Notes: generated by a model not told the origin, from the letters alone. 64,000 bases of DNA from Candidatus Poribacteria bacterium (GCA_965242965.1 OZ251518.1:2169838-2233837); one strand, 5' to 3'. Shown: positions 2,040-54,762, counted from the first letter of the stretch. Translations and numbers: made by a program.

Positions 2040-2437
2040 TCGCGCTGCGTCGGGCGAAGGAGTTAGCGCGTTCGCTCGGGTTCAGTGTCGGCGCGGACCG
2101 GTTTCTGCTGAAATTTCGTCTTTCAATATAGAGACTCCAACCGGCAAAAAGGATAGTAACATTCTGCTTTCCCGGTAGGAGAGACCTCCAGGTCTCGATG
2201 CAACCTCCCCGTAGGAGAGACCTCCCGGTCTCGATTTCTGCCGCCCGCTGTCTGCAATTCAGGAGCAGGTGCTCCTGAACTACAGGCGGCGCGCACCCGA
2301 GCCCTGTAGTTCGGGTGCGCCTGCACCCGAACAGGTTAAGGTATCTCCTAGCCAGCGGGCATCGAGACCAGGAGGTCTCTCCTACTTAGAGCCATCGAGA
2401 CCGGGGCGCGCCTACCTCTCATCCTCAAGAACTTGAT
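2040..2437. repeat. intergenic repeat block (family B x4, family D)
   Basis: GGTAGGAGAGACCTCCAGGTCTCGATGCAA, CCGTAGGAGAGACCTCCCGGTCTCGATTTC and inverse copies at 2360..2400. Family-D dumbbell at 2262..2335. Confidence 0.75.
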
Positions 2438-2698
2438 TCACCGGAAAGAAGCATCGCTGATGTGCACATTTACCGGTGGCGGGCCGCCGAGTTCAATATC
2501 CATCAGCACAGGAATTGAGGCTGGCGGCGGAACAGCCGTTCCTTCCGCCTGTAGTGCCTCAATGTGGAGTTGAATCGCTTCCACAATCAAGGTGCGCACC
2601 TCGTCCAAGTTCTCGCCGACAGCGACGCAGCCGGGCAAGTCTGGGAGGTAAGCACCGTAACTCTCCTCGCCTTTTTCAAAAATGACGACATATTGCAT
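2438..2698 (-). CDS. HicB-like antitoxin (UPF0150 family), orphan
   Basis: 86 aa: MQYVVIFEKGEESYGAYLPDLPGCVAVGENLDEVRTLIVEAIQLHIEAL matches the HicB N-domain consensus (Y.V.FE.dEDGgY.a..PDLPGC...G.TlEEA..n..EAI.lhlE). It starts 8 bp after the stop of the upstream oxidoreductase gene. No HicA-like ORF is nearby. Confidence 0.7.
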   Translation of the reverse strand: MQYVVIFEKGEESYGAYLPDLPGCVAVGENLDEVRTLIVEAIQLHIEALQAEGTAVPPPASIPVLMDIELGGPPPVNVHISDASFR

Positions 2699-2706
2699 GG
2701 CATTCT

Positions 2707-8655: not shown

Positions 8656-10527
8656 TCATCGATGAAACCGCCGTTCCAATTCATCGCGGCCCATCTCAAT
8701 AATGATAGGACGGGAATGTGGACAATTGAAGGGCAACTTCGCCTCCGATAACTCGCGGACGAGATTCAGCATCTCTTTGGTATCTAAGGTATCACCGGCT
8801 TTTACCGCGGATTTGCAGGCGAGGGTTATCAGTGCCTTATCTAGTGCCTCCGGTAACTGCACCTCGCTGTGCGGTGCTTCGGGGAGCGCATCAAGCAAAT
8901 CGGTGACGGCTTGCGCGGCGGCCCGAGTCGGCAGCGGCGCGGGAATCGCGCGGATGAGAATCGTGTTCCCGCCGAATTCCTCCAGATCGAAGCCGAGTTT
9001 TTTGAAGATGTCGCTGTGCATTTTGAGGGTTGCAAGCTGCTGCGGTGTGCTTTCTAACGTCACCGGGAGCAATAAACCCTGCACGGGAATGCCATCTTTT
9101 TGCAGTTGATTAACGAACCGCTCATAAAGCACGCGCTCGGCGGCAACATGCTGGTCGATGAAGAAAACCTTATCTTTCGCCTCGGCGACAATATAGGTTT
9201 TAAAGAGGTTCGTTTTCAACTCAACCGCTTCAAAATCGAGCAGGGAAAGTAACTCTCCATCGGGAATCTCCTGTCGCGGCGGTTGCACGAAGGTTGGCGG
9301 TGCCTTGGGCGGCCGTTCAGGTTCCACGTCAGGTTCTACATCAGTGGGCGGCGCGGTTTCGCTCGTAGGCGGCGGTGCTTCGTTATCCGGCGTTTCGGTG
9401 CCGCTCGGTTTAGTAGGCGTAGGCGTAGGATGTTGGAGCGGCGGAATGCGTCTTCCGGGACGCGCGCCGGCGACACTACGGACACCGGTGCCTTCTGCAT
9501 CCTCTGTCTCAATAGGGGTTTCGATTTTTGGAATATACTTCGCTTTCTGGATAGCGTTGCGAATGATTCGGACAATGCCGCTGTAAACCATCCGTTCGTT
9601 CCGGAACCGCACCTCAATTTTAGCGGGGTGGACATTGACATCGACGGTGTTCGGTTCCATCGTCAGGAAGAGTAGCGCGACAGGTTGCCTATCTTTCGCC
9701 ACCATTGCGCCGAGTGCCTCGGTGATAGCGGCAGTGATAATGCGGCTGCGGATGGGCCGCTGATTCAGGAAGAAGAGTTGATAGTCCCGATTCGGCTTTG
9801 TAAAGTCTGGCTTTCCGAGGAGGCAATACATTTGCAAATCGGGCAGTTCCTCCTGAAATTCAGTGAGGTTCTCAGCGAATTCCTTGCCGTAGATGAGCCG
9901 CGTGCGTTCCAGATACGCATCGCAGGCGCGGACATCCAAGATGGTCCTGCCGTTATGTGTCAGCGAGAATTGGATATTCGGGTGGGCAAGCGCAGCCCAT
10001 GTCACCTGATTCGTGATATGGTTCATCTCTGTCGTGTCCGTTTTGAGGAACTTGAGGCGCGCGGGGACATTGTAAAAGAGATTGTTGATTGACATGTGCG
10101 TGCCGGGAGAGCAACCGCTCTCTTGGACAGAACGGAATACACCGCCATCAACGTTAACTTTTGTTCCCTCCATTGCATCCGCTGCACGGGTAAGCAACTC
10201 GAACTGCGAAACAGAAGCGATACTCGCTAATGCTTCGCCGCGGAAGCCGAAGGTGTTGATTTCCTCGAGGTCTTCGATGCGGTTCACTTTGCTGGTAGCG
10301 TGGCGTTCCAAGGCGAGGAGCGCGTCCTCACGTGCCATGCCGCTACCGTTATCGGAGACGCGGATGAGCCGTTTGCCACCGGCGCGAATTTCAACGCGGA
10401 CATTGGTGCTGCCAGCATCAATGGCATTTTCGATGAGTTCTTTGACTACTGATGCCGGGCGTTCCACTACCTCACCGGCAGCGATTTTATTTGCGACATC
10501 AGCAGAGAGTATTTTGATTTTTGGCAT
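8656..10527 (-). CDS. mutL: DNA mismatch repair protein MutL
   Basis: MPKIKILSADVANKIAAGEVVERPASVVKELIENAIDAGSTNVRVEI..GG...I.V.DNGSGM is a canonical GHKL ATPase N-terminus. The track ORF extends 84 codons upstream into repeat sequence; the start is set at the ATG at 10527. Confidence 0.9.
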   Translation of the reverse strand: MPKIKILSADVANKIAAGEVVERPASVVKELIENAIDAGSTNVRVEIRAGGKRLIRVSDNGSGMAREDALLALERHATSKVNRIEDLEEINTFGFRGEALASIASVSQFELLTRAADAMEGTKVNVDGGVFRSVQESGCSPGTHMSINNLFYNVPARLKFLKTDTTEMNHITNQVTWAALAHPNIQFSLTHNGRTILDVRACDAYLERTRLIYGKEFAENLTEFQEELPDLQMYCLLGKPDFTKPNRDYQLFFLNQRPIRSRIITAAITEALGAMVAKDRQPVALLFLTMEPNTVDVNVHPAKIEVRFRNERMVYSGIVRIIRNAIQKAKYIPKIETPIETEDAEGTGVRSVAGARPGRRIPPLQHPTPTPTKPSGTETPDNEAPPPTSETAPPTDVEPDVEPERPPKAPPTFVQPPRQEIPDGELLSLLDFEAVELKTNLFKTYIVAEAKDKVFFIDQHVAAERVLYERFVNQLQKDGIPVQGLLLPVTLESTPQQLATLKMHSDIFKKLGFDLEEFGGNTILIRAIPAPLPTRAAAQAVTDLLDALPEAPHSEVQLPEALDKALITLACKSAVKAGDTLDTKEMLNLVRELSEAKLPFNCPHSRPIIIEMGRDELERRFHR

Positions 10528-10534
10528 TTTTTGT

Positions 10535-10748
10535 TGTTTCCTAATTGTTTGTATCGGGCCCTGTAGGCGGGACATCCCTGTCCCGATACGGTATTGCATC
10601 GAGACCGGGAGGTCTCTCCTACTGTAGGCGGGACATCCCTGTCCCGACACTCGCCGGTAGGCGGGACATCCCTGTCCCGAAATTCGCCTACCGTAGGCGG
10701 GACATCCCTGTCCCGATACGGTATTGCATCGAGACCAGGAGGACTCGC
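10535..10748. repeat. cluster of family-C (GTAGGCGGGACATCCCTGTCCCGA) and family-B (GCATCGAGACC[N]GGAGGTCTCTCCTAC) palindromic units
   Basis: Four copies of the 24-bp family-C unit with irregular 10-38 bp spacing, plus two family-B copies. It lies between mutL and the ABC ATPase gene. Confidence 0.8.
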
Positions 10749-12791
10749 CTACTGGGATTCTAACAGATAGCAATGACACGAATGCGTCTGTGTGAGATGC
10801 GTGACCCCCGGATATTTATCCTTGCAATGCGGCATCACCTCTGGACATCGTGGATGGAAATGACATCCTGCCGGCCGGTTAATCGGCGATGGGACATCAC
10901 CTTCCAGCCGAATCTTTTCCACACTGCTCGCGGTATCCATTTTTGGGACAGCAGAGAGGAGAGCACGCGTATAGGGATGCTTCGGCGAATCAAAAATCTC
11001 CTCGGTTGTCCCGCGCTCTACGATGCGCCCCAGATACATCACGGCTACTTCATCGGCGAGGTATTCCACAACGGCAAGGTTGTGCGTGATGAACAAGTAG
11101 GTGAGTCCTAGTTCATTTTGCAAGTCTTTGAGCAGATTCAAGATTTGCGCTTGCACCGATACGTCCAACGCACTCGTCGCCTCGTCGCAAACGATGAATT
11201 CCGGATGGACGGCGAGGCATCGCGCGATGCAAATGCGCTGTCGTTGTCCGCCAGAGAATTCGTGCGGATAGCGCGTTACCATGTCCGGCGATAGCCCTAC
11301 CCGTTGCATCAGAGTGGCGACGCGCTGGCGGCGTTCTGTCGCCGATGCACCGATGTTGTGCGTCCGCATCCCTTCCTGAATAATATCTCCGACGGTTAGC
11401 CTCGGATTGAGCGAAGAGTAAGGATCTTGGAAAATAATCTGCATCCGCTGCCGATAGGGATGCAGTTGCCCGCGCGTCGCCGTCGTGATGTCAACGCCAT
11501 CGTAACGGATGTCGCCGGTGACAGGCACTCCCAGCCGCAAAATCGCCTTGCCGAGGGAGGTTTTGCCGGAGCCGGACTCCCCAACGAGTGCCAGCGTTTT
11601 GCCGCGCGGCATCGCGAGCTCAACGTTATCTACGGCGTAAACATAACCGGCGGCGCGCTTGAAAATCCCTTTCAAAATCGGATAGTGGACGCAGATGTTC
11701 TTTAATTCCAGCGCAAACTCCTGCGTCTCATCCGCGCGCTCCAAAATAACCTTCGTCTTCTCGGCAGCACTCGCAAGTGTGTCCGTTTCCAACGGAGCAT
11801 CAAACGGCGGCGCGGGGTTATAGAGGTGACAAGCGACGTTGTGCTGTGTTTCGTCTGTGGACAGCACGGGCGCGATGCTCGCGCACCCCTCCATGACTTT
11901 CGGACATCTATCGGCGAACCGGCAACCATCTCCATCGTCACCGTATTCTGTCGCTTTTGGGACGCGCCCGGTAATCGTCTGCAATTCGGCACCCCGTTTA
12001 TGCCGCGCCGGTGTAGACTCTAGCAACTTGACGGTATAGGGATGCTTCGGTGTGTTATAGAGCTGCGTCCATGTGCCCATTTCAACGATTTTTCCGGCAT
12101 ACATTACTGCAACCCGGTCCGCCATATTCGCCACGACTGCCAAGTCGTGCGTAATCAACAGCACTGCCATCTGGAATTCCTGTTGAAGGCGTTGGATGAG
12201 CTCCAGAATCTGTGCTTGGATAGTCACATCGAGTGCGGTAGTCGGTTCATCGGCGATGAGCAGGCTCGGCTGACAAGAGAGTGCCATCGCAATCATGACG
12301 CGCTGTTTCATGCCGCCGGACATCTGGTGAGGATACTCATTGTAACGCGCCGCTGGTTCCGGAATCCCCACTCGTTCTAACATCTCAATCGCTGCGTTTC
12401 GGGCGGCAGTGCCGCGGAGGTTCTGATGCAGGCGGATGGCTTCCGAGATCTGGTTCCCGATTGTGAAAACGGGATTGAGACTCGTCATTGGTTCTTGAAA
12501 GATCATTGCGATGTCGTTGCCCTGAACCTTTCGCTTTTCGATGGCGGGGAGGCGCGTGATGTCTTGGCCTTTGTAATAAATCGCGCCACCGGCGATAAAC
12601 CCTGTCGGCTGCGGCACGAGTTGGATAAGCGAGAGCGCGGTGACGCTCTTCCCGCAGCCGGACTCACCGACAAGCGCGAAGATTTCGTTCTGCCGGAGCT
12701 CAAAGGAAACACCGTCTACTGCACGTGCCACTCCTTCCGGCGTGCGAAAATAGGTTCTGAGGTTTTGGACGCTGAGCAATGTTTCGTTCAT
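10749..12791 (-). CDS. ABC transporter ATP-binding protein with duplicated ATPase domains (peptide/opine importer GsiA/YejF-like)
   Basis: Two Walker A sites (GESGCGKS, GESGSGKT) and two ABC signature/Walker B regions. Cys-rich oligopeptide-ATPase C-terminal segments are present after both domains (DGDGCRFADRCPKVMEGC..., CHFHPRCPEVMPHC). Confidence 0.85.
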   Translation of the reverse strand: MNETLLSVQNLRTYFRTPEGVARAVDGVSFELRQNEIFALVGESGCGKSVTALSLIQLVPQPTGFIAGGAIYYKGQDITRLPAIEKRKVQGNDIAMIFQEPMTSLNPVFTIGNQISEAIRLHQNLRGTAARNAAIEMLERVGIPEPAARYNEYPHQMSGGMKQRVMIAMALSCQPSLLIADEPTTALDVTIQAQILELIQRLQQEFQMAVLLITHDLAVVANMADRVAVMYAGKIVEMGTWTQLYNTPKHPYTVKLLESTPARHKRGAELQTITGRVPKATEYGDDGDGCRFADRCPKVMEGCASIAPVLSTDETQHNVACHLYNPAPPFDAPLETDTLASAAEKTKVILERADETQEFALELKNICVHYPILKGIFKRAAGYVYAVDNVELAMPRGKTLALVGESGSGKTSLGKAILRLGVPVTGDIRYDGVDITTATRGQLHPYRQRMQIIFQDPYSSLNPRLTVGDIIQEGMRTHNIGASATERRQRVATLMQRVGLSPDMVTRYPHEFSGGQRQRICIARCLAVHPEFIVCDEATSALDVSVQAQILNLLKDLQNELGLTYLFITHNLAVVEYLADEVAVMYLGRIVERGTTEEIFDSPKHPYTRALLSAVPKMDTASSVEKIRLEGDVPSPINRPAGCHFHPRCPEVMPHCKDKYPGVTHLTQTHSCHCYLLESQ

Positions 12792-12816: not shown

Positions 12817-12844
12817 AGAAAAAGCAAGGGAATTTTGTTTTTTT

Positions 12845-13440
12845 TTTGGAATTGCGAGGCAAGTTGACACCGCGCGATCGCGGGGCCCGTCCCTCGCCGC
12901 GCCCAGAGACCGTAGTTCGGGAGCGCCTGATCCCGAACGGGTCGACGGTAAAAAAACGCCCCGGATTACCGTAGGGCGAGGGCCTGTCCCTCGCCGTGCC
13001 CAGATCTTGGAAAAGACCGTAGTTCGGGAGCACCTGCTCCCGAACGGGTCGACAGTAAAAAAACGCCCCTCGTTCTCTTCAGGTCCTTTAGGTCCTGAAT
13101 GTCTATAGCAGCCGCAACGCAAAGAGCCCTAAGGTCCTTTAGGTCCTTAATAGACTTTGAGATGCCGCGTGTTTTTTATTAAGGACCTAAAGGACCTTGC
13201 CGGGGGTTGCCTATTTTTCTATAGACATTAAGGACCTAAAGGACCTAAGAGGCCCTCTTGACGACAGGCATCGCGGGGGACAGGCCCCCGCGATACGGTA
13301 AAAAAAACGCCCCGGGTTACCGTAGGGCGAGGGCCTGTCCCTCGCCATGCAACGATCGCGAGGGACAGGCCCCCGCGCTACGGTAACCATTCCCTACTCG
13401 CGCTGAAAAAATAACAATTGACAAAAACACGTTTTTCTGC
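12845..13440. repeat. intergenic repeat block (families A, D, E), including terminator-like modules
   Basis: Contains two copies of GTCGACGGTAAAAAAACGCCCC.. adjacent to family-A hairpins; on the opposite strand these read as a GC stem followed by T7. Confidence 0.75.
13078..13249. mobile_element. ~175-bp palindromic element (family E) built on AGGTCCTTTAGGTCCT / CTATAGACAT motifs
   Basis: ttcAGGTCCTTTAGGTCCTgaatgtCTATAG...TTATTAAGGACCTAAAGGACC...CTATAGACATTAAGGACCTAAAGGACCTAAG. A near-identical copy lies in inverted orientation at 30511..30687; a fragment is at 5557..5580. Confidence 0.7.
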
Positions 13441-28494: not shown

Positions 28495-30316
28495 TCAAAT
28501 CGTTTTGAGTCTGCATTGCAATGCAAGGTTCGCCGCCAGCGTATCCGTTAACGCAACATCCCGGCAGACAAACACAGAATCCTTTGACAACCCTAGACGT
28601 TCTATATCCCTCGGCACAAGTTCAGCATCCAAACAGACGTGGAACATCTGCGACTTATCAGGCGCGACAATGCGAAAAACCGTATTCGTTGCAAGGCCTG
28701 CAACGCGCGCAATTGTGCTATCAAGCGGGTATCCCTCTTTAAGCGCAACTTCATAAAGGACATCCTCTTCGCGCCACCCTTCCCGAAGCGCATCAATGGC
28801 GTTTTCCAACTGCGCGATGTAAGTTTGCACATCCTCGGTGCGGACATCGTCTTCTGTCCGATAGTTGGACTCGGCAAGTTTGAAGACGCGGCAGCCGGCG
28901 TTTTCTCGCAAACACACGCGGCGAACCCGTTCTTTGCCAATCTCGGCAATCGTCTCAAATCCTGCCTTGCGCGCATCCGATTTTTCCGGGGTAGGTTCCG
29001 GCAGTTGCACCATGATAAATTGCCGCGCACCGGAATCTTCCCGATTGAGCTCCAACACTGCCTCTGCTGTCGTGCAGGAGCCCGCGAAGAAATCCAAAAC
29101 GATGGAATCTGCGTCAGTGCTGAACTGCAGGAGGTGTTTGATTAAACCCACCGGTTTCGGAAAATCAAAAATGAAAACATCGTCTCTCTCGAAAAGTTTA
29201 CGAAGTTGCGCCGTGCCGTGGCTAGTCTGCTCCATATCTGTCAGCAGACTTCGCATGACTCTCGCGGAAGAATTCAGATAGTGCTTGTATTCTACCTGCC
29301 ATTCGCCGTTGGCATTCTGCTTGAAAACGATTTTATTCTCCGCTTTCCAATGCAGAAAACGCGCCTCCGACCAGGCCCAGTATTTCACAATCTTTGAGCC
29401 ATCGGGACACGCAATCGCATACCGACGACTTTCACGCTGATGCCGGAGAGGTGCTTCCAGCCGAAAAGTTTTGTAGGGACCGAGTTGTTCATAATGCGCA
29501 TCTTTCCCCTGATATGCCGCTTGCTCTTTTTCGGTCAGCGGCCGCCTGAGCCTGCCTACTTCATCTCGGCTTTTGGCATACATGAGGATATACTCATGAT
29601 TCGTCGCGAGGTGCTTCATGTTATTCCCGCCGCCGCTATTTCGTTGCCAAATCAACTGTTGCATGAAATTCTCTTCCCCGAAAATTTCGTTCATCAGCAG
29701 GCGGAGGTTATGCCCCTCGCGGTCATCGATACTGACGAAGATGAGGCCATCATCCGTGAGTAACTGCCGCGCAAGGAAAAGGCGTGGATACATCATCGAC
29801 AACCACGCCGAGTGGTAACGGCCGCTACGCTCTGGATTGCTCGTCTGCAGATTGCCGGCGGCATCAAGCTGCCCTGACAATTGCAGGCAGGCATCCAACG
29901 GCTTCGCGTAGTTATCGGGATAGACAAAGTCGTTGCCGGTGTTGTAAGGCGGATCGATGTAAATCGCCTTCACGCGTCCGAAATAGGGTTTGTAGAGGAG
30001 TTTCAGCACCTCCAGGTTATCACCTTCAATGAAAAGGTTTGAAGTGCTGTCAAACTGAAGTGACTCCTCTCGGCATGGAATAAGGGTAGCCTCGGTAGGG
30101 ACGTTGAGCAGGCGGATGGATTCGCGCTTGCCTGCCCAATTGAAGTGATACCTATCCTTGGCGTTTACCCCCCCCTTCACAAATCTCTAGTATATTTGCA
30201 AGTTTCTCCATGTCCACTTCGCCTTCGGTGAGGCATTCGGGGAAAAGTTGCTTGAGTTGTCGGAGCCGCTCCTCGTTTAGGGCGGGTGTCGTTTTCGGGG
30301 TTTTATCGGTTTTCAT
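28495..30316 (-). pseudogene. mod: Type III restriction-modification Mod methyltransferase (EcoP15I Mod-like, N6-adenine) split by a frameshift at a G8 homopolymer; no res gene
   Basis: Main ORF 28495..30180 carries IYIDPPYNTGNDFVY (motif IV DPPY), DRYHFNWAGK and HSAWLSMMYPRL, collinear with EcoP15I Mod, plus a C-terminal FFAGSCTT (motif I). A 54-codon ORF starts at ATG 30316 (MKTDKTPKTTPALNEERLRQLKQLFPECLTEGEVDMEKLANILEI...) and matches the Mod N-terminus (QLAVLKANFPQCF...). It is out of frame with the main ORF across cccccccc (30168..30175). Seven or ten G would fuse the two frames. Confidence 0.75.
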
Positions 30317-30510
30317 TAGCATTTTCCTTCGGCAGGCGCGGTTCGTCCTGCGTAAGTCCTCTATGAACGGGCATTAGAAATTCCGCAACGTTCTTCCCCG
30401 TAGGAGAGACCTTCCGGGCTCGATGCATTCCGGTAGGAGAGACATCCTGGTCTCGATGTTCCCGCAGCGCGGGGGACAGGCCCCCGAGATCTCTGTCGTC
30501 TCAATGCGTT

Positions 30511-45914: not shown

Positions 45915-47021
45915 GTGATGCAGTCTGCTATTAAGGCTTTAGGGAGGAAAAAACGCAAATTGCAAGAATTTATTCAACGGGAGAGATGGCAGCGGCTGCT
46001 CAACCCCATCGCGGCGCACTTCCAGACATCCCCAAACGCGATTCAGATTGAGGCAATCCAGCACGGGACTCGGCTGAGAGAGAACGTCTGCCGCCTCATC
46101 ATCGGCAAGGAAAGTTACTTGCTAAAACAGCATGACGTGACCGCACCGGCTGTTGAAGCGGGACATACGCCTATCCAGATTGAGGCTACCGTGTTATCCA
46201 CGTTGCACCGAAGTGGCTGCCGCGTTCCCAAGGTGATTTGGAAATCCGAACCCTTGCATGCGTTGCTATTGGCATGGTGCGGCGAGAACACGTTGGATTC
46301 CATTGCGCAACGTCATCGGGATGCGCATGCCCCAGCGGTTGTCTGGCGTGTGCTAAAAGAATTGTGTCAGATGGAGACACGTTTTGTGGAAAACGCCGAA
46401 TTTCTCAAACCTTACGTATTCGGTTTTGATAGCCGTGCGACTTTGGAACGCTTGTTGGAACAAGGGAAAAGGACGCTCGGTTATCTGCTAACTTCCGCTG
46501 ACCACAATGTCCAAAACGCGTGGCACGCGCTTTCTGTCCGCTTATTGGATGCCCCAACGACCTTAGGCACGCTGGACTACAATGCCCGTAACGTTGTCCT
46601 CGCCGGCGCGGAACCGACGTTTATTGATTTCGGGAGCATCGGTTGGGATTGGCAGGAGAGGCGGCTCGTGCAACTCTTCAATAGTATCGGTGCCTTCACA
46701 GAAGGCGCGAATTTTGTCTCACTGCTAGACAAAGAGCTGGTTCACCATTACGCGACGTGGGTTGCGACGCACCGAGAAACCTGTTCGCCTTCGGACATCG
46801 CGGCGCGGGTAGATGCACATCATCTGTTGCTTTACTTGTCGGTGGTGCATCGGCTTTTGCGAGTGGTAGTGCGTCCTGAAACGGTGGACAGTCAGATGCT
46901 TCTGCATGCTTGGGGAGATGCGCGTGCCAGATTTCAACGCGCACTCACGTTGATTGCCACCGCCGATTTAAGCGATGATGGTGACATCGGCCGAATTCGG
47001 GACATGATTCGCCAGAGATGA
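45915..47021 (+). CDS. phosphotransferase-family protein (APH/choline-kinase-like protein kinase fold)
   Basis: LGTLDYNARNVVLAGAEPTFIDFGSIGWDWQERRL resembles the APH catalytic-loop/DFG-like region (D.N..N...FID). Confidence 0.55.
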   Translation: MMQSAIKALGRKKRKLQEFIQRERWQRLLNPIAAHFQTSPNAIQIEAIQHGTRLRENVCRLIIGKESYLLKQHDVTAPAVEAGHTPIQIEATVLSTLHRSGCRVPKVIWKSEPLHALLLAWCGENTLDSIAQRHRDAHAPAVVWRVLKELCQMETRFVENAEFLKPYVFGFDSRATLERLLEQGKRTLGYLLTSADHNVQNAWHALSVRLLDAPTTLGTLDYNARNVVLAGAEPTFIDFGSIGWDWQERRLVQLFNSIGAFTEGANFVSLLDKELVHHYATWVATHRETCSPSDIAARVDAHHLLLYLSVVHRLLRVVVRPETVDSQMLLHAWGDARARFQRALTLIATADLSDDGDIGRIRDMIRQR

Positions 47022-47577
47022 GCAGGATATGAGCAGGATTTATACAAGATTAGCACGATTAGGAGCAGGATTTACGAGATTTACAGGATTTCACAGGATT
47101 AGGTCTCTGGTGCGCTGGCGCGGTTGTGGACTGCCACGGGGTGTTCGATGCATCAGCATCTATAATCGTGGTAAATCGTGATAATCGTGTAAATCCTGCT
47201 TCAGACGATTGGCATAGCGAGGGACAGGCCCTCGCCCTACGGTGAACGGAAACGGCATTGCAAACCGTAGCGCGGGGGCCTGTCCCCCGCGATCGTTCGA
47301 CCCGCGCGAAAAACACCTCTTCAGAAGCTCTGCAGCGGTTTATCTCTGTAGGACAAGAGCACCTGCTCTGGATCCGTTCGGGAGCGGGTGCTCCCGAACT
47401 ACAGATCCGGGACATGAGCACGATCGCGGGGGACAGGCCCCCGCGCTACGGGCCAGGACGAAAAAAACGCGGGGGACAGGCCCCCGCGCTACGGTACCTA
47501 AACCACCTCTGTAGGGCAAGAGCACCTGCTCTTGCCCATTGCGATCGGGCGATCGCAACCTACAGAGGCGATGAGGA
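47022..47577. repeat. intergenic repeat block: family-F 9-bp repeat arms in inverted arrangement plus family A/D units
   Basis: 47025..47100 carries (GAGCAGGATT, TACAAGATT, AGCACGATT, TTACGAGATT, TACAGGATT, TCACAGGATT); 47160..47195 carries the inverse (AATCGTGATAATCGTGTAAATCCTGC). Family-A and family-D units follow at 47205..47575. Confidence 0.75.
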
Positions 47578-50500
47578 TTACTCCCGCTGCTTCAATTCAC
47601 CAAACGTCGTCAACATCCGATTTGCCGCAGAGACAGGACCGCGCAACATACGCAACGCCAAGGTCTCTCGCTTACCACCCAATGAGACCTCTTCGATCTG
47701 GTAGTAATACTCGACTCCCGGCTTCGCAGATGTATCGGTGAACGTGTAAGTTTGACGCTCGCCTGTCGTGCCGGCACCGGCGATTAAGACAGGATTCAGC
47801 AACGTGAAACCACTATCGCGTTTCAAGCTGCGACGCAGATTAAATCCAGCGTTGTCTACCTCAGATTCGGTTGTCCATGTGACGACAACCGGACCGGCAT
47901 CGGTACGCGTCACGGTGAAACTTGATAATTCCACCGGCAAGGCACCGCCTTGACGATACCCTGGTGTCCCGATGTCATCGGCATGGCCATAGTGCAGCGA
48001 TTCAACTTTAAATTGCTGGAAATACGCCGCAAAAGCCCACCCGGAACGTCTTGTCCCCTTCTCCGCCACGCCTTTCACATAGCGACGGACAAGCGAACTC
48101 CGCGCATCTTCCAAACCGCGCACCGGCACCGCCCACGACGGCGCATCATCGGTACGACGATTGCCATCGGTGTTACCGACCTCGTCTACCAAATTCCCAT
48201 TTCTATCGGTGAGTTTCAGATAGAACGCATCGGTGCTCAAGAACGTATCCCGCGCGGTTTTAATGCGCAGATTCTTCTCGTGCAAGTCAAGCAGGTTGTA
48301 AACCCTATCTGCAGGGAAAACACCCGCCGATGAAGCGCGCGCAGCCCCTGCCACTATCAACAGCGTCTGATTCGGCTGAATCACCTTCTCCTGCAATGTC
48401 AACGTGACAATCGGGCGGCCGACGAGGTCTTCGGAATTTTCATTCTGAATCTCCAACCTCCAGCGATTCAGATTCAGTGCCTCCGTTTTAGACGCGTTGT
48501 AGAGCTCTATCCACTGCGGCAGCGTGCCACCACCCGAATCCAACATGAGTTCGCTAATGGTGACTGCACCCTTCGGCGTAGATGCCTCCGTTTTCACCGC
48601 GCCATTCGGATAGCCCGGCGTGCCAGATGTCGCCGGAGACTGCGTCACCTTCCTGTCATAGCCGATACCGGTGAAGGCGGCTTCCGCCCACGCATCTTTA
48701 TGATACCCGACGATATCCGCTTTCGCGCGCTGCCAGACCTTGCCGGAACTGAGCGCATCCTCGGTATCTCCACTGGGTGCCTCCAGCACTTGCAAGGGCC
48801 AGACATGCGTATCATACAGCCCTTCCTGCTCGCGGACAAACGCATCGGTATCACTGCCGCCGCCCCCGGCGACATCCACGAACGCTTCGTCCAAACCGAG
48901 TTTGTCTTTCGCATTGCGGAGAATGAGGAGGAATTTCCCATCATCGGGCAGCGAGAGACCTGCGTCCACTAAAGAGGCATGCGATAACCCCTTATTTTCC
49001 CCGCCTGCGAGTAGTGTTTTGTCCGGTTCACTGTTCGTTATCAGCAACAGCCCGTTCGCCGGCACACTCACATCGGGAAACATAATGAGCGATGTATCCT
49101 CTTTTTTGCCATCGGCGACAACAGAGAGCTCCCAGTCTTTGAGAGAGACATCCGAAACGTCGACATTGCGGAGCTCTATCCAGTCGTTCGCATCCCCACT
49201 GCCATTGCCGAGCTCGTTGAAAACGATGGGCTCGCGAGGCACATCAGAGGCTGGCGACTTCGGATCTGACGTTTCCGGCAGGTAAATCACCGACAACACC
49301 GGTGTATCCGAGAGATCGAACGTCGGAGGTTCCTGCCGCGTTGTTGGAAACGTCAGCGTGTCTTCTCGCGTTGTCTTTGGCGGCAGCCTGTCCACCGGTG
49401 CTCCCGGCTCTATAGCCGGCGTGGCCTGACCTAACAATTCGTTGCCATCGCCATCGACTACCCGTGTCCCCTGCGGAATCAATATGCCGCTGGTATCCAG
49501 TGACACCGATGTCGCAAAATCACCCGCTTGGATAGGATACGCAAACGGCACGATCGTTGAACCCCCGCGCTCCGAACCTCTTTGCCACGTCGCGTGCCGC
49601 GCATTCGCCAAAACGCGCTCGCCTAAATAGATGACGACATACGGCGGATTGTCTCCTTCGTAAGTGACACCCTTCTCGTCAAACGACACCTCCACAATCA
49701 ACTCATCTTCTGCGGTGTAAGCCTCTGCCTCCGACTCGACAATCTTTGGCGTTTCAGTGACACGCGGCGGCACCGTGTCAACTGTCACAACTAATGCCTC
49801 CGTGGCGGCGGCGTTCGAGAGATATTCTGGGACTGCTACCGTATCATCAACTGCCGCTGCCTCCTTGACTGCCCCTGCTTCAAGCGTGATGTGCACCTTG
49901 CCATCAAAATTGAAGGCAGGCGTGATAACAGCACTGACGGTAGCACTCGGCGATGTCGGTTGAGAGACAGCCACATCCCAATTCAACGCCGTTCCATCCG
50001 CCTGCGTGATGCTGATTTTCCCCGTGTCAAACGGCGATACGACATCGCGGCCAAAAGTAAATTCAACCGCAAAATCCTCAATCACCAAGCCTGTTTCGCC
50101 TCCCCGACGCGCTACCTGCACCGTCGGTGGTGTCACCACGGGAACGGTGAACGTATTCGATGCCAAGTTGCCGTTCCTCGCCAGATCTTGCGCGACACCC
50201 TCTGGCAGCTGAACGGTGACCTCGCCCCTAAAATTGAGCGGCGGCGTGAACGTGGCACGGTGGACCTCACTCTGGAACGTATGGTGAAGAGCATCATCGT
50301 CAATCCCTTTGTAATTAAAGCCGAGCAACTTCGTTTCAACGCTCCATCCATCGCCGAGAGCCTTGGCAATTGCATCGGTATCAATGCTTTCTTCTGGTAT
50401 GTGCTCCGGCACCCCTCGGGCACTGGTATTATTCCAAAAGTGCATATCCACATCAAAGGGACCCGTTACCGTGCCGGTTTCACCGGCAGCACGTCCAATC

Positions 50501-52068
50501 TCCACATTCGCCCGGATGGTATCTATCATGTGGCTAAACCCGCCGCTCCAATTCTCAGGAGGTTGGCGATTACGGAACTTGGTCGTAACGGCATGCCCGT
50601 CAAAGGCATTGCCACCAGCGTCGGTGATTTCATACACTATATTCCACTGCTGGATCATCGAAGGGACAAACTGCCGAGTATCCAACATGCCATCCGATTG
50701 GAGACGGTTCAAACTTGCAAAGGGATGGAAAATCTCGATGCCACCGGTGCCGTAAGCCCAATCTCCCTCCTTCACCACGTACTCAAACGTTAACTTGTTG
50801 TCCGCATCACTCCTCACTGCCATCCGCGTGCCACTGCTCCCGGGCACCACACCGAAAGAGACCGGTTGCGGTGTGCCGACGAGCGTTGCATATTCGGCAG
50901 CATCATTCCCGGAGTGAAGTTTAATCTTCAATTTCGTTTCCGGATTGGCATAGACAGTTTTTGAAAACTTTATCTGAAACCGAATCGTCTCGCCCACGCC
51001 GTAAATACCTAGTGGACGCAGCTGTAATCCCGCCGGGGAAGCGAGGCCGCCCTCAGTAGTGATACATCCCGCAGTTACTAGCAGTTGCTCCAGCTGCTGC
51101 TGACCCTGAGACGTTCTTAAATCAGGCCGGCCCGCATTGTGCCATTCGTAGAAACAGGTCTCATAAAACGCGGCAAAGCGGCTATCCTCATCTGTCCCCT
51201 GTGGCGTGCTCGTAATCGTATACGGGCTGTTTCTGTCCTGGACCCAACGCGATCCTTCCGGCAAGTTGAAGGCATCGTTCAGGGCTCCGTTGATTCTATA
51301 AGGCTCGTCCCAACCGCTAAACGGGGGATCGAAAGTTGGCCGGGACAGCGTCGGCCGGCGACCATCTATCCTGGGGTAGTCAAGTGTGCCTGTAAACGTC
51401 AGCGTGTCTGAATTGACTGCAGTACCGCCCGCGCGATTAAGCTGCCCTCCCGTCAACGGCGTAGTATTGAACCAGCCGCCATCAAGGTCCAAGTCACCGG
51501 TTCTCACCTTATAGTTGTAGATGACGGTATACTCGGTGAACTCGGTGCGGCCTTGTAAATGATCACCGTTAAAGTAGTGGTTGTGGTATTGCGTACCGGA
51601 AACAGGACCTCCAGCATCCCAAGATATATCCAGGTGCGTCCGAAACCAAAAGGTATTCACAGGTCCGACACGAATTGCAATCGCGAGGATATCCCCCGCT
51701 ATAAGGGGAGGAGTCGCCGACGTTATAGGAATACCGCCGACAGGGGTGCCGGTGCTATCAAGAGGAACGTAGCCGTTAATGACACCTTGGCTCGCCTTCC
51801 AGTAGTTAGTGCCCGGCCCTCCGTAACCGCCATAGTTACTGGGCTTAAAATCTGCTGGCGGCCAAACACCGGAAACCGTTTGGCGTTGTCCAGTATTGTC
51901 CGTCGCCTTCGCCTTAAGCGCGCTCTCCGGAATTAGGTAAAACTCAATCCCTTTGATTTCGGGTGCCTGTGCCTCGGCTACCTCCGGGACAGCGAGCCCG
52001 AAGCCAACCCCCGCGAGCATCAAGAAGATGAAAAATCTCGCTTGCAAAAAAAGCCATTTCTTCTGCAT
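47578..52068 (-). CDS. giant secreted protein (1496 aa) with signal peptide, two lamin-tail domains and a C-terminal beta-sandwich sorting-type domain
   Basis: N-terminal hydrophobic signal. LTD-like segments PIVFNELGNGSGDANDWIELRN and VTISELMLDSGGGTLPQWIELYN. C-terminus VELSSFTVTRTDAGPVVVTWTTESEVDNAGFNLRR...YYYQIEEVSLGG. RBS GGAGG precedes the ATG at 52068. Confidence 0.8.
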   Translation of the reverse strand: MQKKWLFLQARFFIFLMLAGVGFGLAVPEVAEAQAPEIKGIEFYLIPESALKAKATDNTGQRQTVSGVWPPADFKPSNYGGYGGPGTNYWKASQGVINGYVPLDSTGTPVGGIPITSATPPLIAGDILAIAIRVGPVNTFWFRTHLDISWDAGGPVSGTQYHNHYFNGDHLQGRTEFTEYTVIYNYKVRTGDLDLDGGWFNTTPLTGGQLNRAGGTAVNSDTLTFTGTLDYPRIDGRRPTLSRPTFDPPFSGWDEPYRINGALNDAFNLPEGSRWVQDRNSPYTITSTPQGTDEDSRFAAFYETCFYEWHNAGRPDLRTSQGQQQLEQLLVTAGCITTEGGLASPAGLQLRPLGIYGVGETIRFQIKFSKTVYANPETKLKIKLHSGNDAAEYATLVGTPQPVSFGVVPGSSGTRMAVRSDADNKLTFEYVVKEGDWAYGTGGIEIFHPFASLNRLQSDGMLDTRQFVPSMIQQWNIVYEITDAGGNAFDGHAVTTKFRNRQPPENWSGGFSHMIDTIRANVEIGRAAGETGTVTGPFDVDMHFWNNTSARGVPEHIPEESIDTDAIAKALGDGWSVETKLLGFNYKGIDDDALHHTFQSEVHRATFTPPLNFRGEVTVQLPEGVAQDLARNGNLASNTFTVPVVTPPTVQVARRGGETGLVIEDFAVEFTFGRDVVSPFDTGKISITQADGTALNWDVAVSQPTSPSATVSAVITPAFNFDGKVHITLEAGAVKEAAAVDDTVAVPEYLSNAAATEALVVTVDTVPPRVTETPKIVESEAEAYTAEDELIVEVSFDEKGVTYEGDNPPYVVIYLGERVLANARHATWQRGSERGGSTIVPFAYPIQAGDFATSVSLDTSGILIPQGTRVVDGDGNELLGQATPAIEPGAPVDRLPPKTTREDTLTFPTTRQEPPTFDLSDTPVLSVIYLPETSDPKSPASDVPREPIVFNELGNGSGDANDWIELRNVDVSDVSLKDWELSVVADGKKEDTSLIMFPDVSVPANGLLLITNSEPDKTLLAGGENKGLSHASLVDAGLSLPDDGKFLLILRNAKDKLGLDEAFVDVAGGGGSDTDAFVREQEGLYDTHVWPLQVLEAPSGDTEDALSSGKVWQRAKADIVGYHKDAWAEAAFTGIGYDRKVTQSPATSGTPGYPNGAVKTEASTPKGAVTISELMLDSGGGTLPQWIELYNASKTEALNLNRWRLEIQNENSEDLVGRPIVTLTLQEKVIQPNQTLLIVAGAARASSAGVFPADRVYNLLDLHEKNLRIKTARDTFLSTDAFYLKLTDRNGNLVDEVGNTDGNRRTDDAPSWAVPVRGLEDARSSLVRRYVKGVAEKGTRRSGWAFAAYFQQFKVESLHYGHADDIGTPGYRQGGALPVELSSFTVTRTDAGPVVVTWTTESEVDNAGFNLRRSLKRDSGFTLLNPVLIAGAGTTGERQTYTFTDTSAKPGVEYYYQIEEVSLGGKRETLALRMLRGPVSAANRMLTTFGELKQRE

Positions 52069-52745
52069 TGAAAATTCCTCCTTAAAAATAGAATTAAATT
52101 GATAGGGGTAGTTGCCACTTTTGCGGCGGCTCTCCCCATTGTTCTTAAGGTATCAGGGCATCTTTCTGAGTGGTGCTTGGAAAGATGCGTGTGTTCTGAA
52201 AGGCTAGCGATGAACGTGTGTGGGCGCGGTGGAACGCGAAAAGCCCCTCGGGGCTGTCCCCAAGAGGTAAGACCTCCTGGGCGCGAGGGGAGCCGAGGGG
52301 CAAAGCGAGAGTCGCGCGTGAGCCGCGCGCGTGCAAAACACGGGTAGGCGCGCTTTAGCGGCGCGCAAGTTTTCATCGTATGGCCATTCAGAGATAGGAT
52401 ATTTTGCCCCGGGGATGGGGCGGAAGTGTCCCCCCGGTTCGCCTTCCCGTCGAGAGCCGTAGTGGTTAACGGCTGTATATGAAGGGGGGGGGTCTTTCGG
52501 TCTGTGCGGTGTCAACGGAGCGCGTGAACGTGCGTGCGGCATGCGGCCGCGCGTTCAGGGCTGTCTGCAGTTGGATTTCGCCATGTATAGCAAAGCGTTT
52601 CGTCACTTGCATAGGATTCTCCATTGCGTTTCGTTGAAAACTCGCACCAAATCAACAATCAGGACGCAAATGCCATCATTTTCCATCGGCAGGCGCAACT
52701 TCAAATCGCGCCTGCAGGCGTATCAATTCTGCGTCCATTGTATAT

Positions 52746-52774
52746 AGTATACCACATTTTCAAACGTTTGTCAA
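52746..52774 (-). promoter_or_regulatory. near-consensus sigma70 promoter ~680 nt upstream of the giant gene
   Basis: Minus strand reads TTGACA (52774..52769), a 17-nt spacer, then TATACT (52751..52746) with an upstream TG. It lies in an AT-rich island at the far end of the 52069..52850 noncoding region. Confidence 0.5.
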
Positions 52775-52849
52775 ATTTTTTTGTAAAAAAAGTGATATTT
52801 TTTGGATATTCGCGAAAAAATCCTATAAATCCTATAATTTTGTCTATGG

Positions 52850-53760
52850 CGTATCGGGACAAGGATGTCCCTCCTACCCAAACGCATATCGGGACAAGGA
52901 TGTCCCTCCTACCCAAACCCGTAGGAGAGACCTCCCGGTCTCGATGCAACTTTCGGTAGGAGACCGTAGTTCGGGAGCGCCTGATCCCGAACGGCGCATG
53001 GCGAGGAGAACCCCTTCCGGGCCCGTAGCGCGGGGGTCTGTCCCCCGCGATCGCCCGCGTGCCCCAGAGACTGTAGTTCGGGAGCACCTGCTCCCGAACG
53101 GGTCAAGAGCAGGCACTCTTGACCTACAGAGGTGATGCGCGCACGCGTGCCCGAGGGCACGGCGAGGGACAGGCCCTCGCCCTACGGTAAACGGCACGTT
53201 TTTTCACCGTAGCGCGGGGGCCTGTCCCCCGCGATCGCTCGATCTGCGCGAAAAACGCACGCAGACTAAGGGCGTTTTCCCGACCGAGGCATGGCGAGGG
53301 ACAGGCCCTCGCCCTACGGTATGCGTGGCGTTTTTTTCACCGTAGGGCGGGGGCCTGTCCCCCGCGATCGTTCGCGTGCCCCAGAGACCGTAGTTCGGGA
53401 GCACCTGCTCCCGAACGGGTCAAGAGCAGGCGCTCTTGCCCTACAGAGGGGATGCGCGCACGCGGGCCCGACGGCACGGCGAGGGACAGGCCCTCGCCCT
53501 ACGGTGAAAGGAGACGGCCTTGCATACCGTAGCGCGGGGGCCCTCGCCTGCCACACGCGCAGGCGAGCGGGTTTCCCCCGCGATTGCCAGACCCGCGCGA
53601 AAAACGCACGCCAGCCAAAGCCGTTTTCCCGACCGTTGCATGGCGAGGGACAGGCCCTCGCCCTACGGTAAGCGGCACGTTTTTTCACCGTAGCGCGGGG
53701 GCCTGCCCCCCCGCGGTGGATACCGCATCCTCAGATGCTATAATCTTGTAAATCCTATAA
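52850..53760. repeat. ~0.9-kb intergenic block of family A, B, C and D repeat units
   Basis: Multiple ACCGTAGCGCGGGGGCCTGTCCCCCGCGATCG and GGCGAGGGACAGGCCCTCGCCCTACGGT units, two family-D dumbbells (53060..53140, 53385..53450), family C at 52855..52915 and family F at 53735..53790. Confidence 0.8.
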
Positions 53761-53838
53761 TCTTGCAAATCCTGATTCAGACAATTGGGCGCACGGAGGA
53801 CAGGCGGAGATACAAATCCATCTTTCCCGACAATACGC

Positions 53839-53867
53839 TTGACTTAAAATACGTTTTTTTATACAAT
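53839..53867 (+). promoter_or_regulatory. sigma70-type promoter of the LamG gene
   Basis: TTGACT (53839..53844), 17-nt spacer, TACAAT (53862..53867). AAGGAGG RBS before the ATG at 53977. Confidence 0.5.
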
Positions 53868-53976
53868 AGACTCAAATTCGCCGAACACCGTAGAGCGAGG
53901 ATCTCAAAGTCACTAGTTTCAGAGGGTTTCCCTCGCAAAGTTTCCGCCATTTGATAGCAAAAAGGAGGAACTAAAC

Positions 53977-54762
53977 ATGCGACCTCTTAATATAATTTGG
54001 CTGAATATAATTTGGCTCTGCCTACTTTTCGCGAGTATGCCTGCATCAGCGGCAGTTGATGAAAACACCGTCGCTGTCTGGCTATTTGAGGAAGGAGGCG
54101 GCAAAGTCGTGAAAGATGCTTCCGGCAACGGACACGATGCCAAATTCGCCGGCAGCCCGAAATGGGTAAAGGCGAAATTCGGCACAGGGTTAGAATTCCC
54201 CGGTGATGCCGGCGGCTACCTCATCGTGGAGTCTACCAAAAAACTGGAATTGGAGACGCTCACGGTGGAAGCCTGGGTGAAAGTCAAGAAGGCTACCGGC
54301 AAATGGCAAGGCATCATCTGCAAACAGCAAGCCGGTTGCACGAACCGAAATTACGGCATCTGGGTGAACGTCAACACCAACGTCTTGCACGCGCAAATCG
54401 GCGCGAACGGCGCGTGCGCGTTTAGCATCGATGGCACGACTACCATCACCGATGACGATTGGCACCACCTCGCCTTCACCTACGATGGAGATATGGGGCG
54501 CGTTTACGTCGACGGTAACCTAGAAACCGAGGCACCTAACGCCGCCACTTTTCAGAGCGGCGATCCGATTACCATCGGCGTACCGAATGTTGACAACGCC
54601 AACGGACTGATGGGTATCATCGAAGAAGCGCGCATTTCCAACGTCGCGCGCACCGAAGAAGAAATTCAGGAAGCGATGGATGTCGGCTTAGCGCAGATAC
54701 TCAGCGTTGAACCGGGCGGCAAACTCGCCACACGCTGGGCATATCTGAAAATGACACGCTGA
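53977..54762 (+). CDS. secreted LamG-domain (concanavalin A-like lectin/glucanase) protein
   Basis: Signal peptide. WHHLAFTYDGDMGRVYVDG and VDENTVAVWLFEEGGGKVVKDASGNGHDAKF are typical of Laminin_G_3 proteins. Confidence 0.7.
   Translation: MRPLNIIWLNIIWLCLLFASMPASAAVDENTVAVWLFEEGGGKVVKDASGNGHDAKFAGSPKWVKAKFGTGLEFPGDAGGYLIVESTKKLELETLTVEAWVKVKKATGKWQGIICKQQAGCTNRNYGIWVNVNTNVLHAQIGANGACAFSIDGTTTITDDDWHHLAFTYDGDMGRVYVDGNLETEAPNAATFQSGDPITIGVPNVDNANGLMGIIEEARISNVARTEEEIQEAMDVGLAQILSVEPGGKLATRWAYLKMTR

Follow-up and report, generated by a model that had tools for sequence, protein, structure and literature searches.

We analyzed a 64,000-nucleotide (nt) stretch of DNA from a Candidatus Poribacteria bacterium (GCA_965242965.1 OZ251518.1:2169838-2233837), referred to below as the window. 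Its minus strand carries a large gene for a protein with lamin-tail domains (LTD), which is preceded by a distant promoter and a long 5' leader. Our analysis indicates that this leader is probably a contingency (phase-variation) locus and not a riboswitch. The initial annotation had proposed a riboregulatory or attenuator leader, and had listed a homopolymer in it as a potential phase-variation switch. The second suggestion is strongly supported: the homopolymer ranges from 5 to 13 C among near-identical leaders, and it is located inside a conserved upstream open reading frame (uORF) that is preceded by a Shine-Dalgarno (SD) motif.

The homopolymer is found at 52484..52492 on the minus strand, exactly where the 9-nt run had been reported. 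It is an uninterrupted poly-C tract in the transcript (C9; G9 on the plus strand), about 415 nt before the LTD gene. About 0.85 G/C runs of nine or longer are expected per 64 kb from base composition. The C9 run is therefore unremarkable alone, and its conservation and length variation are what matter. A protein search with the LTD protein identified 22 relatives, and DNA was recovered around nine of them (L001-L009). L001-L008 are syntenic orthologues, and L009 is a paralogue at another locus, between EamA and PhyH genes. Tract lengths were read directly from the DNA at these ten loci, the window included. Others were inferred from tract-spanning peptides by comparison with the known flanks; the peptides came from about 25 gene-caller 'proteins' of other contigs, collected by protein search with fused-frame translations together with their cluster members. 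The tract is uninterrupted at all ten DNA loci. C9 is the modal length (7 of 10; the window, L001-L004, L006 and L009), C10 is found in L005, C11 in L008 and C12 in L007. The peptides gave lengths of 5, 7, 8 (twelve times), 10 (three times, including L005 again), 12 (twice) and 13. Overall, tracts of 5, 7, 8, 9, 10, 11, 12 and 13 are present across strains. State frequencies are biased in this collection, since long fused open reading frames (ORFs) are found by homology and short uORFs only by exact look-up.

Seven of the DNA leaders, referred to as group 1, fall into three sub-lineages. The window-like lineage has C9 in the window, L001 and L003 and C10 in L005, and its peptides correspond to C10 (P0036, P0043 and P0042, the last being L005), C12 (P0058, P0059) and C8 (P0044). 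The L002/L008-like lineage has C9 in L002 and C11 in L008, with C8 in P0045-P0051, C5 in P0040, C7 in P0037 and C13 in P0038. The L004-like lineage has C9 in L004, C8 in P0041 and P0052-P0054, and an extra A before C9 in P0039. All three frame outcomes of the tract occur within each sub-lineage, uncorrelated with relatedness. Leaders that are 94-96% identical differ in the tract, which measures nine in the window and L003 and ten in L005. Outside group 1, L006 has C9 and L007 has C12. The rest of the 508-nt group-1 core contains 0-3 gap columns and one 32-nt insertion (in L004). Such a tract-length polymorphism is the hallmark, in sequence comparisons, of a slipped-strand contingency locus. 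We infer frequent, reversible switching of the tract.

The purity of the tract is also informative. The tract encodes prolines in the uORF, and synonymous CCN codons are never used in it. It is predicted to pair with a downstream G-run with a probability of 0.72-0.91 in the window, L001, L003 and L005, 0.1-0.5 in L002, L004, L008 and L009, and 0 in L006 and L007. The G-run partner is interrupted in L002, L006 and L007, and the tract shows no compensating change. Because neither the coding of three prolines (PPP) nor pairing explains the purity, selection for mutability is the simplest remaining explanation.

The uORF containing the tract occupies 52466..52612 on the minus strand. It has 48 codons and a stop (product MQVTKRFAIHGEIQLQTALNARPHAARTFTRSVDTAQTERPPPFIYSR), reads the C tract as PPP, and in the C9 allele ends at the TAA in GTTAAC. 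Its SD motif, GGAG at 52619..52622, is 6 nt before the ATG. In all ten loci a frame opened by ATG or GTG runs 32-51 codons into the C tract. An SD-like motif is found 5-8 nt before the start at each of them (GGAG, GGAGG, GAGAGG or AAGGAG; AGG only in L009). L001 and L002 have unrelated inserted sequence at the uORF start, yet a new SD motif and ATG are present in the same frame, and three different sequence solutions of the uORF start exist within group 1. Variable sites in the uORF are distributed 10/7/11 over the codon positions. The pattern is that of a uORF kept as an ORF and not as a peptide sequence, with no sign of selection on the peptide. The uORF is presumably translated, and the 48-residue product is recorded as a called gene (P0056) on a 5,661,971-bp genome contig (NCBI, ENA).

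Tract length determines which of three frames is entered downstream. Frame A (offset 0) meets its first stop at +15 in all ten loci. In the window this TAA (52468..52466) ends the uORF and is part of an invariant GTTAAC at 52465..52470. Frame B (offset 1; 52204..52483) is entered at tract lengths of 3n+2 and reads on for 277 nt to a TAG at 52206..52204, which leaves 136 nt to the LTD ATG. Its open stretch is likewise 277 nt across group 1, reaches 460-529 nt in L006 and L007, and is cut off at +4 in L009. Alleles with the uORF fused to frame B are L008 (C11), P0040, P0041 and P0045-P0054; L006 and L007 read the equivalent frame. Frame C (offset 2; 52020..52481) is entered at 3n+1. It is open for 153 codons, across the SD motif and ATG of the LTD gene, to a stop at 52022..52020. 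Fusions of the uORF to frame C are found in L005, P0036-P0039, P0042 (again L005) and P0043.

Frame C is open as far as the LTD start in 9 of the 10 loci. In the window, L001, L003 and L005 its stop is reached within the LTD ORF, at +48. It is a TAG 15 nt before the ATG in L002 and L008, a TAG abutting the ATG in L006 and L007, and an ATGA overlap in L009. In dinucleotide shuffles, the per-locus probability of one frame being open that far is 0.013-0.08. The same frame is open in three lineages whose sequences past the tract align poorly or not at all. We regard this as moderate support, short of proof, for selection on the openness of frame C.

The long leader ORFs are probably not ordinary proteins. 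Variable sites downstream of the tract are distributed 32/28/43 by phase, with 32 of 103 at third positions of frame B and 28 of 103 at third positions of frame C. Neither frame has an excess of variable sites at third positions, whereas the LTD gene and the neighboring Laminin_G_3 gene have the usual one. Comparison of frames B and C with Pfam and NCBIfam gave no family match. An exhaustive HMMER search with the frame-B product against 1.84 billion representatives returned 12 matches, of which 11 are leader-derived ORFs and one is a spurious repeat protein; the leader-derived matches come from this lineage and a few further ones (P0060-P0067). Frames B and C were rejected as protein-coding because of the flat codon positions, the lack of a family and the restriction of the matches to leader ORFs.

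Transcription of the leader is predicted to start at a sigma-70-type promoter at 52746..52774 on the minus strand. The −35 hexamer TTGACA (52774..52769) is separated from the −10 hexamer TATACT (52751..52746) by a 17-nt spacer with a TG extension. It is the sole 11/12 match within 47000..54500, and the minus strand between it and the LTD start codon contains no further promoter-like site. This confirms that the only strong promoter is far upstream of the gene, about 670 nt from the start codon. From the −10 spacing, the transcription start is predicted near 52739. The −35 hexamer, the 17-nt spacing and the −10 hexamer are kept in all nine related loci, including the paralogue, and the only hexamer difference among the ten is a −10 of TATAAT instead of TATACT in L009. 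A chance match would not explain this conservation. In all ten loci the promoter has an A-rich tract on its 5' side. The leader following it is 691 nt long in the window and 690-990 nt across the ten loci.

The case for leader function rests on the features that persist between diverged lineages and on the tract polymorphism. The promoter, the uORF with its SD motif, the pure C tract, the TAA at +15 and the long leader are present in L001-L008 and in the paralogue, and the persisting features also include frame C reaching the LTD start and the leader length. The arrangement of a distant strong promoter followed by a long leader, as first described for the window, thus extends to every orthologue and one paralogue. 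The L009 leader is about 50% identical to that of the window and is unalignable except for a few blocks. The switch has evidently been duplicated along with the LTD gene family, judging from these shared features. The L009 copy, at 2227..3001, carries its own promoter, uORF, C9 tract, GTTAAC and long leader.

We propose the following mechanism. A strong constitutive promoter would produce the leader of about 670 nt, and about 130 nt into it ribosomes would initiate at the SD-preceded uORF that holds the poly-C tract. Slipped-strand mispairing in replication would alter the tract length and so set the frame of the ribosome on leaving the tract. In frame A, the state of the window C9 allele, ribosomes would stop 15 nt on at the conserved TAA, and about 400 nt of C-rich leader would remain untranslated. 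In frame C (3n+1 in this lineage) the whole leader would be read, with termination at or beside the LTD start codon. In frame B (3n+2) about two thirds of the leader would be read. Ribosome transit through the leader may raise LTD expression by two routes, which are not exclusive. By coupling, a ribosome in frame C would melt the structure hiding the LTD SD motif, and termination-reinitiation would occur at the LTD start. By polarity, translation would shield the C-rich, G-poor RNA from Rho; between the uORF and a point about 130 nt short of the LTD ATG, the C/G ratio of the transcript is above 1 and peaks at 2.0-2.9, a composition suited to Rho that would be exposed only after an early stop of the uORF. 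Tract length would thus switch a large, fast-evolving surface protein heritably and reversibly between OFF, intermediate and ON. The window C9 allele would be in the short-uORF state, which is presumed to be OFF or low. Transcriptional slippage on the C run could add leaky expression from 'off' templates. The fullest form of this proposal is a three-position translational 'gearbox', in which the tract picks the frame and ribosomes are released 15 nt past the tract, two thirds along the leader or at the start codon. These positions would give OFF, intermediate and ON states through polarity and termination-reinitiation, and the device would be duplicated across LTD paralogues. We regard it as tentative and somewhat doubtful in this complete form.

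Several observations weigh against the contingency model or parts of it. We infer from sequence alone that the frame state changes LTD output, and our choice of the ON state is a guess. Most of the leader has a C/G ratio of 1.2-2.9, but its predicted fold is stable (z = −4.5) and does not favor the loading of Rho. Frame B is the commonest state in the recovered contigs, which the model does not predict, although recovery is biased to long fused ORFs. Sequestration of the LTD SD motif is not predicted in L004 and L009 (unpaired probability of 0.53 and 0.60, respectively). In L004, frame C is broken about 90 nt before the LTD start by the 32-nt insertion. Tract lengths derived from proteins presuppose that the prolines are encoded by all-C (CCC) codons, and some loci (contig names ctg…x_c) look like long-read assemblies, in which homopolymer errors are possible.

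The rate of leader evolution is another such observation. The group-1 leader core is 86-95% identical, compared with 67-87% at LTD third positions, which could be taken to mean that the leader is more conserved than the protein and strongly constrained. We rejected this interpretation after calibration with the Laminin_G_3 gene, which places the leader rate at about the level of third positions. Identity is 0.86-0.95 for the group-1 leaders versus 0.82-0.93 at Laminin_G_3 third positions. For individual loci, the Laminin_G_3 third-position and leader-core values are 0.93 and 0.95 in L003, 0.85 and 0.87 in L002, 0.86 and 0.87 in L008, 0.82 and 0.86 in L004, and 0.76 and 0.63 in L006. In addition, a permutation test in group 1, which has low power, detected no avoidance of stop-creating changes in frames B and C (3.2 and 1.9 expected, 2 and 1 observed).

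The leader has a stable predicted structure. The 691-nt leader has a minimum free energy of −251 kcal/mol (z = −4.5, from only 20 dinucleotide shuffles). The three hairpins listed in the initial annotation all exist, with coordinates that were slightly off; including a 20-codon ORF discussed below, the offsets are 4-12 nt. Toward the 3' end of the leader, the hairpin GCATCTTTC(C)...GAAAGATGC is located at 52158..52188 instead of about 52170..52200. Group 1 keeps it with no changes other than G-U, and it is unalignable in L006, L007 and L009. The hairpin AGCCCCTCGGGGCT is at 52242..52255 instead of 52246..52259, and CGCCTGCAGGCG is at 52709..52720, in a segment absent from seven of the nine related loci. 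A search of the whole window with Rfam 15 at the gathering score gave no match. At E<=10, a search of 51900..53500 gave only chance-level matches in the leader, and spurious miRNA-like matches on hairpins of miniature inverted-repeat transposable element (MITE) type upstream of it. These results do not support a known riboregulator. No tRNA or tmRNA genes were found in the window. The transcript strand of 52069..52745 contains no terminator-like site, that is no GC-rich hairpin followed by a U run, which argues against an attenuator of the terminator type; AGCCCCGAGGGGCT has only TTTT after it and is not kept in L006. RNAalifold analysis of the seven group-1 leaders found compensatory changes in 3 of 120 predicted pairs, with an unfavorable covariation term (+1.3). 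For 11 copies of a repeated leader module, 3 of 29 predicted pairs were compensatory and the covariation term was about zero or unfavorable. Conservation and covariation of the listed hairpins are thus not supported, and covariation gives no backing to a riboregulator. The module is 129 nt (43 codons) long and occurs in 2 to 2.5 tandem copies at 2325..2650 in L006 and 2390..2650 in L007. It is homologous to about 52440..52310 in the window and includes the AAAATGTCC block and a GCGCGC hairpin.

Structure around the LTD SD motif is of interest for the coupling route. A candidate anti-SD, the AAAATATCCT block at 52396..52405 on the minus strand, is predicted to pair locally (GCAAAATA / TGTTTTGC) or with the LTD SD region AGGAGGAATTTT. 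The predicted partners of the LTD SD motif are in part this block, located about 320 nt upstream, and in part a nearby CCTTAAG. Its predicted unpaired probability is 0.03-0.07 in six of the seven group-1 leaders and 0.21-0.27 in L006 and L007. The AAAATATCCT block is invariant in group 1 and so shows no covariation in the RNAalifold analysis of group 1 and of the module alignment. In L004, the lineage-specific 32-nt insertion (about 2880..2915, about 120 nt before the LTD start) can form a hairpin. The LTD SD motif of L004 is weaker (ACGAGG) and predicted to be unpaired, and this lineage may have lost or altered the coupling.

These data bear on a rival explanation, in which the leader acts as a cis-regulatory RNA through its structure, either like a riboswitch or by binding a protein, without involvement of translation. 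The C tract would then be an arm pairing with a G-rich block, its length tuning the helix or its processing. The low folding energy relative to shuffles is in keeping with this idea. In window-like leaders the tract is predicted to pair with GGCG and GGGGGG at +41..+54, blocks such as TCTCGG..GGAAGGCGA are kept in all lineages, the GCGCGC hairpin is changed to CGCGTGC/GCACGCG in L009, and there is precedent for a simple sequence repeat (SSR) arm and a G-rich arm processed by RNase III (PMC12721329). However, the Rfam search and the covariation analysis speak against it, and no pairing of tract and G-run is predicted for L006 and L007, and little for L002, L008 and L009. A structured RNA also leaves unexplained the SD motif and start of the uORF, the TAA at +15 and the frame that is open to the LTD start. 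We consider it unlikely. It is less likely still that the leader is a small protein-coding gene (frame B or C, 130-225 residues) that is itself phase-variable, with the LTD gene merely co-transcribed. Gene callers do call leader ORFs on many contigs, distant frame-B products align at 37-58% identity with no frame-breaking indels, and the tandem duplication in L006 and L007 is a whole number of codons. Against this, variation is flat over the codon positions next to two genes with a clear third-position excess, the family searches gave no match, and no relatives other than leaders were found among the 1.84 billion representatives. The composition, rich in R, P, S, H and C, is what is expected from translation of a C-rich non-coding strand. 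Frame B of the paralogue stops 4 nt past the tract, and recovery by protein search favors alleles that keep the frame.

Another explanation is that the tract differences are neutral noise or assembly error. The uORF would then be a fixed leader peptide, for example a PPP-stalling sensor dependent on elongation factor P (EF-P), or irrelevant, and the LTD gene would be expressed from its own SD motif. The modal C9 at 7 of 10 DNA loci, the origin of several loci from long-read assemblies, the consensus SD motif of the LTD gene and the near-neutral conservation of group 1 would all fit. Yet a neutral homopolymer should decay, and the tract is pure in 10 of 10 loci, including a paralogue with an LTD protein only 54% identical. 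Lengths vary from 5 to 13, also among contigs with short-read-style names (the scaffold names of L002, with nine, and L008, with eleven, suggest short reads), and the inferred lengths cover a range of 8 nt. C8 is common to twelve independent contigs, which is not expected of random error. Coding of PPP would permit synonymous CCN codons, and none are seen. We give this explanation little credence.

The LTD gene itself is located at 47578..52068 on the minus strand and encodes 1496 residues. The protein combines two LTD domains with an N-terminus like that of a secreted protein and a C-terminal domain weakly similar to fn3. The ORF call and Pfam agree with the initial annotation on the length and the two LTD modules. 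The PF00932 (LTD) match has an E value of 1.4e-20 and 74.1 bits, compared with a cut-off of 34.3. It spans two stretches, the better one at residues 1163-1299. The N-terminus, MQKKWLFLQARFFIFLMLAGVGFGLAVPEVAEA, resembles a signal peptide as judged by eye. The last 123 residues give a weak, sub-threshold match to fn3 (E 0.02), which makes the proposed C-terminal beta-sandwich plausible; its description as a sorting-type domain is unverified. A good ribosome-binding site had been noted at the start codon, and is found as the SD motif AAGGAGG at 52077..52083, 8 nt before the ATG at 52068; GGAGG or GAGG is kept in all loci. The LTD proteins diverge rapidly. Orthologues are 54-92% identical. In the group-1 genomes the LTD identity to the window is 0.74-0.82, compared with 0.95-0.97 for Laminin_G_3 (53977..54762), and in L006 and L007 it is 0.65 compared with 0.92. 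L003 and L005 have near-identical leaders (95%), yet LTD proteins that are just 78-82% identical. The LTD gene is thus an outlier in divergence, which fits a diversifying surface protein, and its fast divergence suggests diversifying selection or recombination.

A terminator-like hairpin with a T run is located at 47466..47490 on the minus strand, 88 nt past the LTD stop. It has a 10-bp stem with 8 GC pairs and a TTTTTTCGTCC tail, and is likely the end of the LTD transcription unit. A divergent Laminin_G_3 gene is found upstream in seven of the eight orthologous loci. In L005, the fetched 3-kb upstream flank holds just a short ORF and does not reach Laminin_G_3. The gene downstream of LTD is rpsB in L003 and L005 and a GFO_IDH gene in L004, L006, L007 and L008. 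All nine related loci have a gap of 1.1 to 2.3 kb 5' of the LTD gene, in which no gene is consistently called. MITE-like arrays of GC-rich hairpins (gatcgcgggggacaggcccccgcgctacgg and relatives) flank the LTD unit at 52850..53700 and 47100..47560, and are also found at 1500..2150 in L009. One copy of the repeat corresponds to the terminator-like hairpin at 47490..47466. The leader of the window was correctly described as free of MITE repeats; a relative, L002, does carry one, inserted at about 2260..2480 of its leader with the uORF left intact.

The lineage was found solely in the protein and contig index derived from ENA, Logan and NCBI. In a collection of genome contigs, neither a protein N-terminus pattern nor the exact DNA pattern GCGCGCCTACCNGTGTTTTGCA had a match. 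Of two scans of metagenome contigs, the first gave no match and the second gave three unrelated chance matches in coding regions (L010-L012). The DUF1501, sulfatase and LTD/LamG proteins hint at a lineage of PVC type or similar, although this is a guess.

The 5' part of the leader, at 52625..52739 on the minus strand in the window, is variable. It contains an ORF of 20 codons, the CGCCTGCAGGCG hairpin and a GGACGCA...TGCGTCC stem. The 5' 60-250 nt of the leader are plastic, and are largely deleted or replaced in L001, L002, L004 and L006-L009. The 20-codon ORF had been proposed to encode an upstream peptide. It exists, at 52738..52676 instead of 52742..52680. A functional peptide is not supported, as the segment is missing in L001, L002, L004, L006, L007, L008 and L009. 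Its length drops from 20 codons in the window to 6 in L002 and 4 in L001. In P0037 and P0040, an ORF from the ATG equivalent to 52738 runs in frame into the conserved uORF. We rejected this ORF as a functional uORF since it is not conserved, having 4, 6 or 20 codons, or being fused, depending on the strain. Its ATG at 52738, 8 nt after the −10 hexamer, is at or beside the predicted transcription start, so that leaderless initiation is possible.

Other homopolymers in the window deserve mention. A G8 run at 30168..30175 (C8 on the plus strand) splits a DNA methylase gene (Pfam N6_N4_Mtase; 30152..30320, minus strand). An N-terminal frame of 56 codons from an ATG near 30319 ends just past the run, and the remainder is a 561-residue ORF at 28495..30180 in a different frame (VKGGVNAKDRYHFNWAGKR...). 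The split points to an OFF allele of a phase-variable Mod-type methyltransferase, or else to a sequencing error in the homopolymer, and suggests that the organism may have other homopolymer switches. A T10 run at 12838..12847 (A10 on the minus strand) is located about 47 nt upstream of an ORF for an ABC-transporter ATPase (10749..12791, minus strand). A mutL gene is present at 8656..10779.

The LTD leader resembles several known systems. Homopolymer contingency loci are exemplified by the poly-G tracts in Campylobacter jejuni ORFs (PMC11955535). As in the contingency loci of Neisseria, Haemophilus, Campylobacter and Helicobacter, there is a pure G/C run of about 8-13 nt whose length is polymorphic between close relatives, a length change shifts the frame, and the target is a large surface protein. 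At the sequence level, the leader has a mutable pure tract (the threshold for a G/C run being about 7-8 or more), polymorphism and a frame consequence, as in SSR contingency loci. Unlike in the pathogen loci, the tract is carried by a distinct ORF about 415 nt upstream of the gene, and not by the structural gene or a promoter spacer. Any effect on the LTD gene must therefore be indirect. The host also differs from the host-adapted bacteria with contingency loci, being an uncultivated environmental lineage represented by metagenome assemblies alone.

The nearest published analogue among those we read is the 5' untranslated region of Haemophilus influenzae hmw1A, in which heptamer repeats act through an RNA hairpin processed by RNase III (PMC12721329). 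Both systems have a hypermutable repeat in the long 5' leader of a large adhesin-like gene and a predicted pairing with a G-rich segment, and control of hmw1A is post-transcriptional, as proposed for the LTD leader. In contrast to hmw1A, the LTD repeat is a homopolymer inside a uORF that is predicted to be translated, it alters the frame, and the G-rich pairing is not predicted in all lineages. Rho attenuation that depends on a uORF is described for tnaC-tnaAB, speFL-speF, cruR and mgtCBR, and phase switches acting through Rho include fimS and Clostridioides difficile flgB, in which leader termination gives stochastic ON and OFF states (PMC12360218). The LTD leader shares with the uORF-Rho attenuators a leader ORF followed by C-rich, G-poor RNA before the structural gene, in which the position of the ribosome would set the exposure of the RNA. 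It differs in that a heritable frameshift of the uORF would take the place of a ligand-stalled ribosome or invertible DNA as the input; in addition, the leader is predicted to be structured and the role of Rho is putative.

The positions at which frame C ends (TAG abutting ATG, ATGA, −15 or +48 relative to the LTD start), L004 excepted, are similar to those in termination-reinitiation coupling. Unlike in ordinary coupling, the upstream ORF reaches that stop in only one of three classes of tract length, and the frame-C product shows no sign of being a functional protein. Haemophilus influenzae lic1 (licA) is a three-state translational switch based on CAAT repeats, which are located at the 5' end of the structural ORF with alternative start codons. 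In lic1 as in the LTD leader, three classes of repeat length would lead to three translational outcomes, possibly graded, whereas the LTD tract is in a separate leader ORF. A literature search of incomplete coverage found no homopolymer switch in a leader ORF coupled to a downstream gene, which is weak evidence of novelty.

Most documented cases of phase variation come from host-adapted pathogens and have their repeats in promoters or within the regulated gene. If our interpretation is correct, uncultivated environmental bacteria also use contingency loci, in this case for very large, fast-evolving surface proteins, and evasion of phages or grazers would be a plausible reason for the switching. 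A homopolymer in a leader ORF could then control a downstream gene indirectly, through the travel of ribosomes along the leader. The 'hypothetical proteins' of 130-225 residues found 5' of LTD genes would most likely be frame states of a regulatory leader instead of real proteins, which is a caution for annotation, and the tract length recorded in an assembly would be a single state of the switch.

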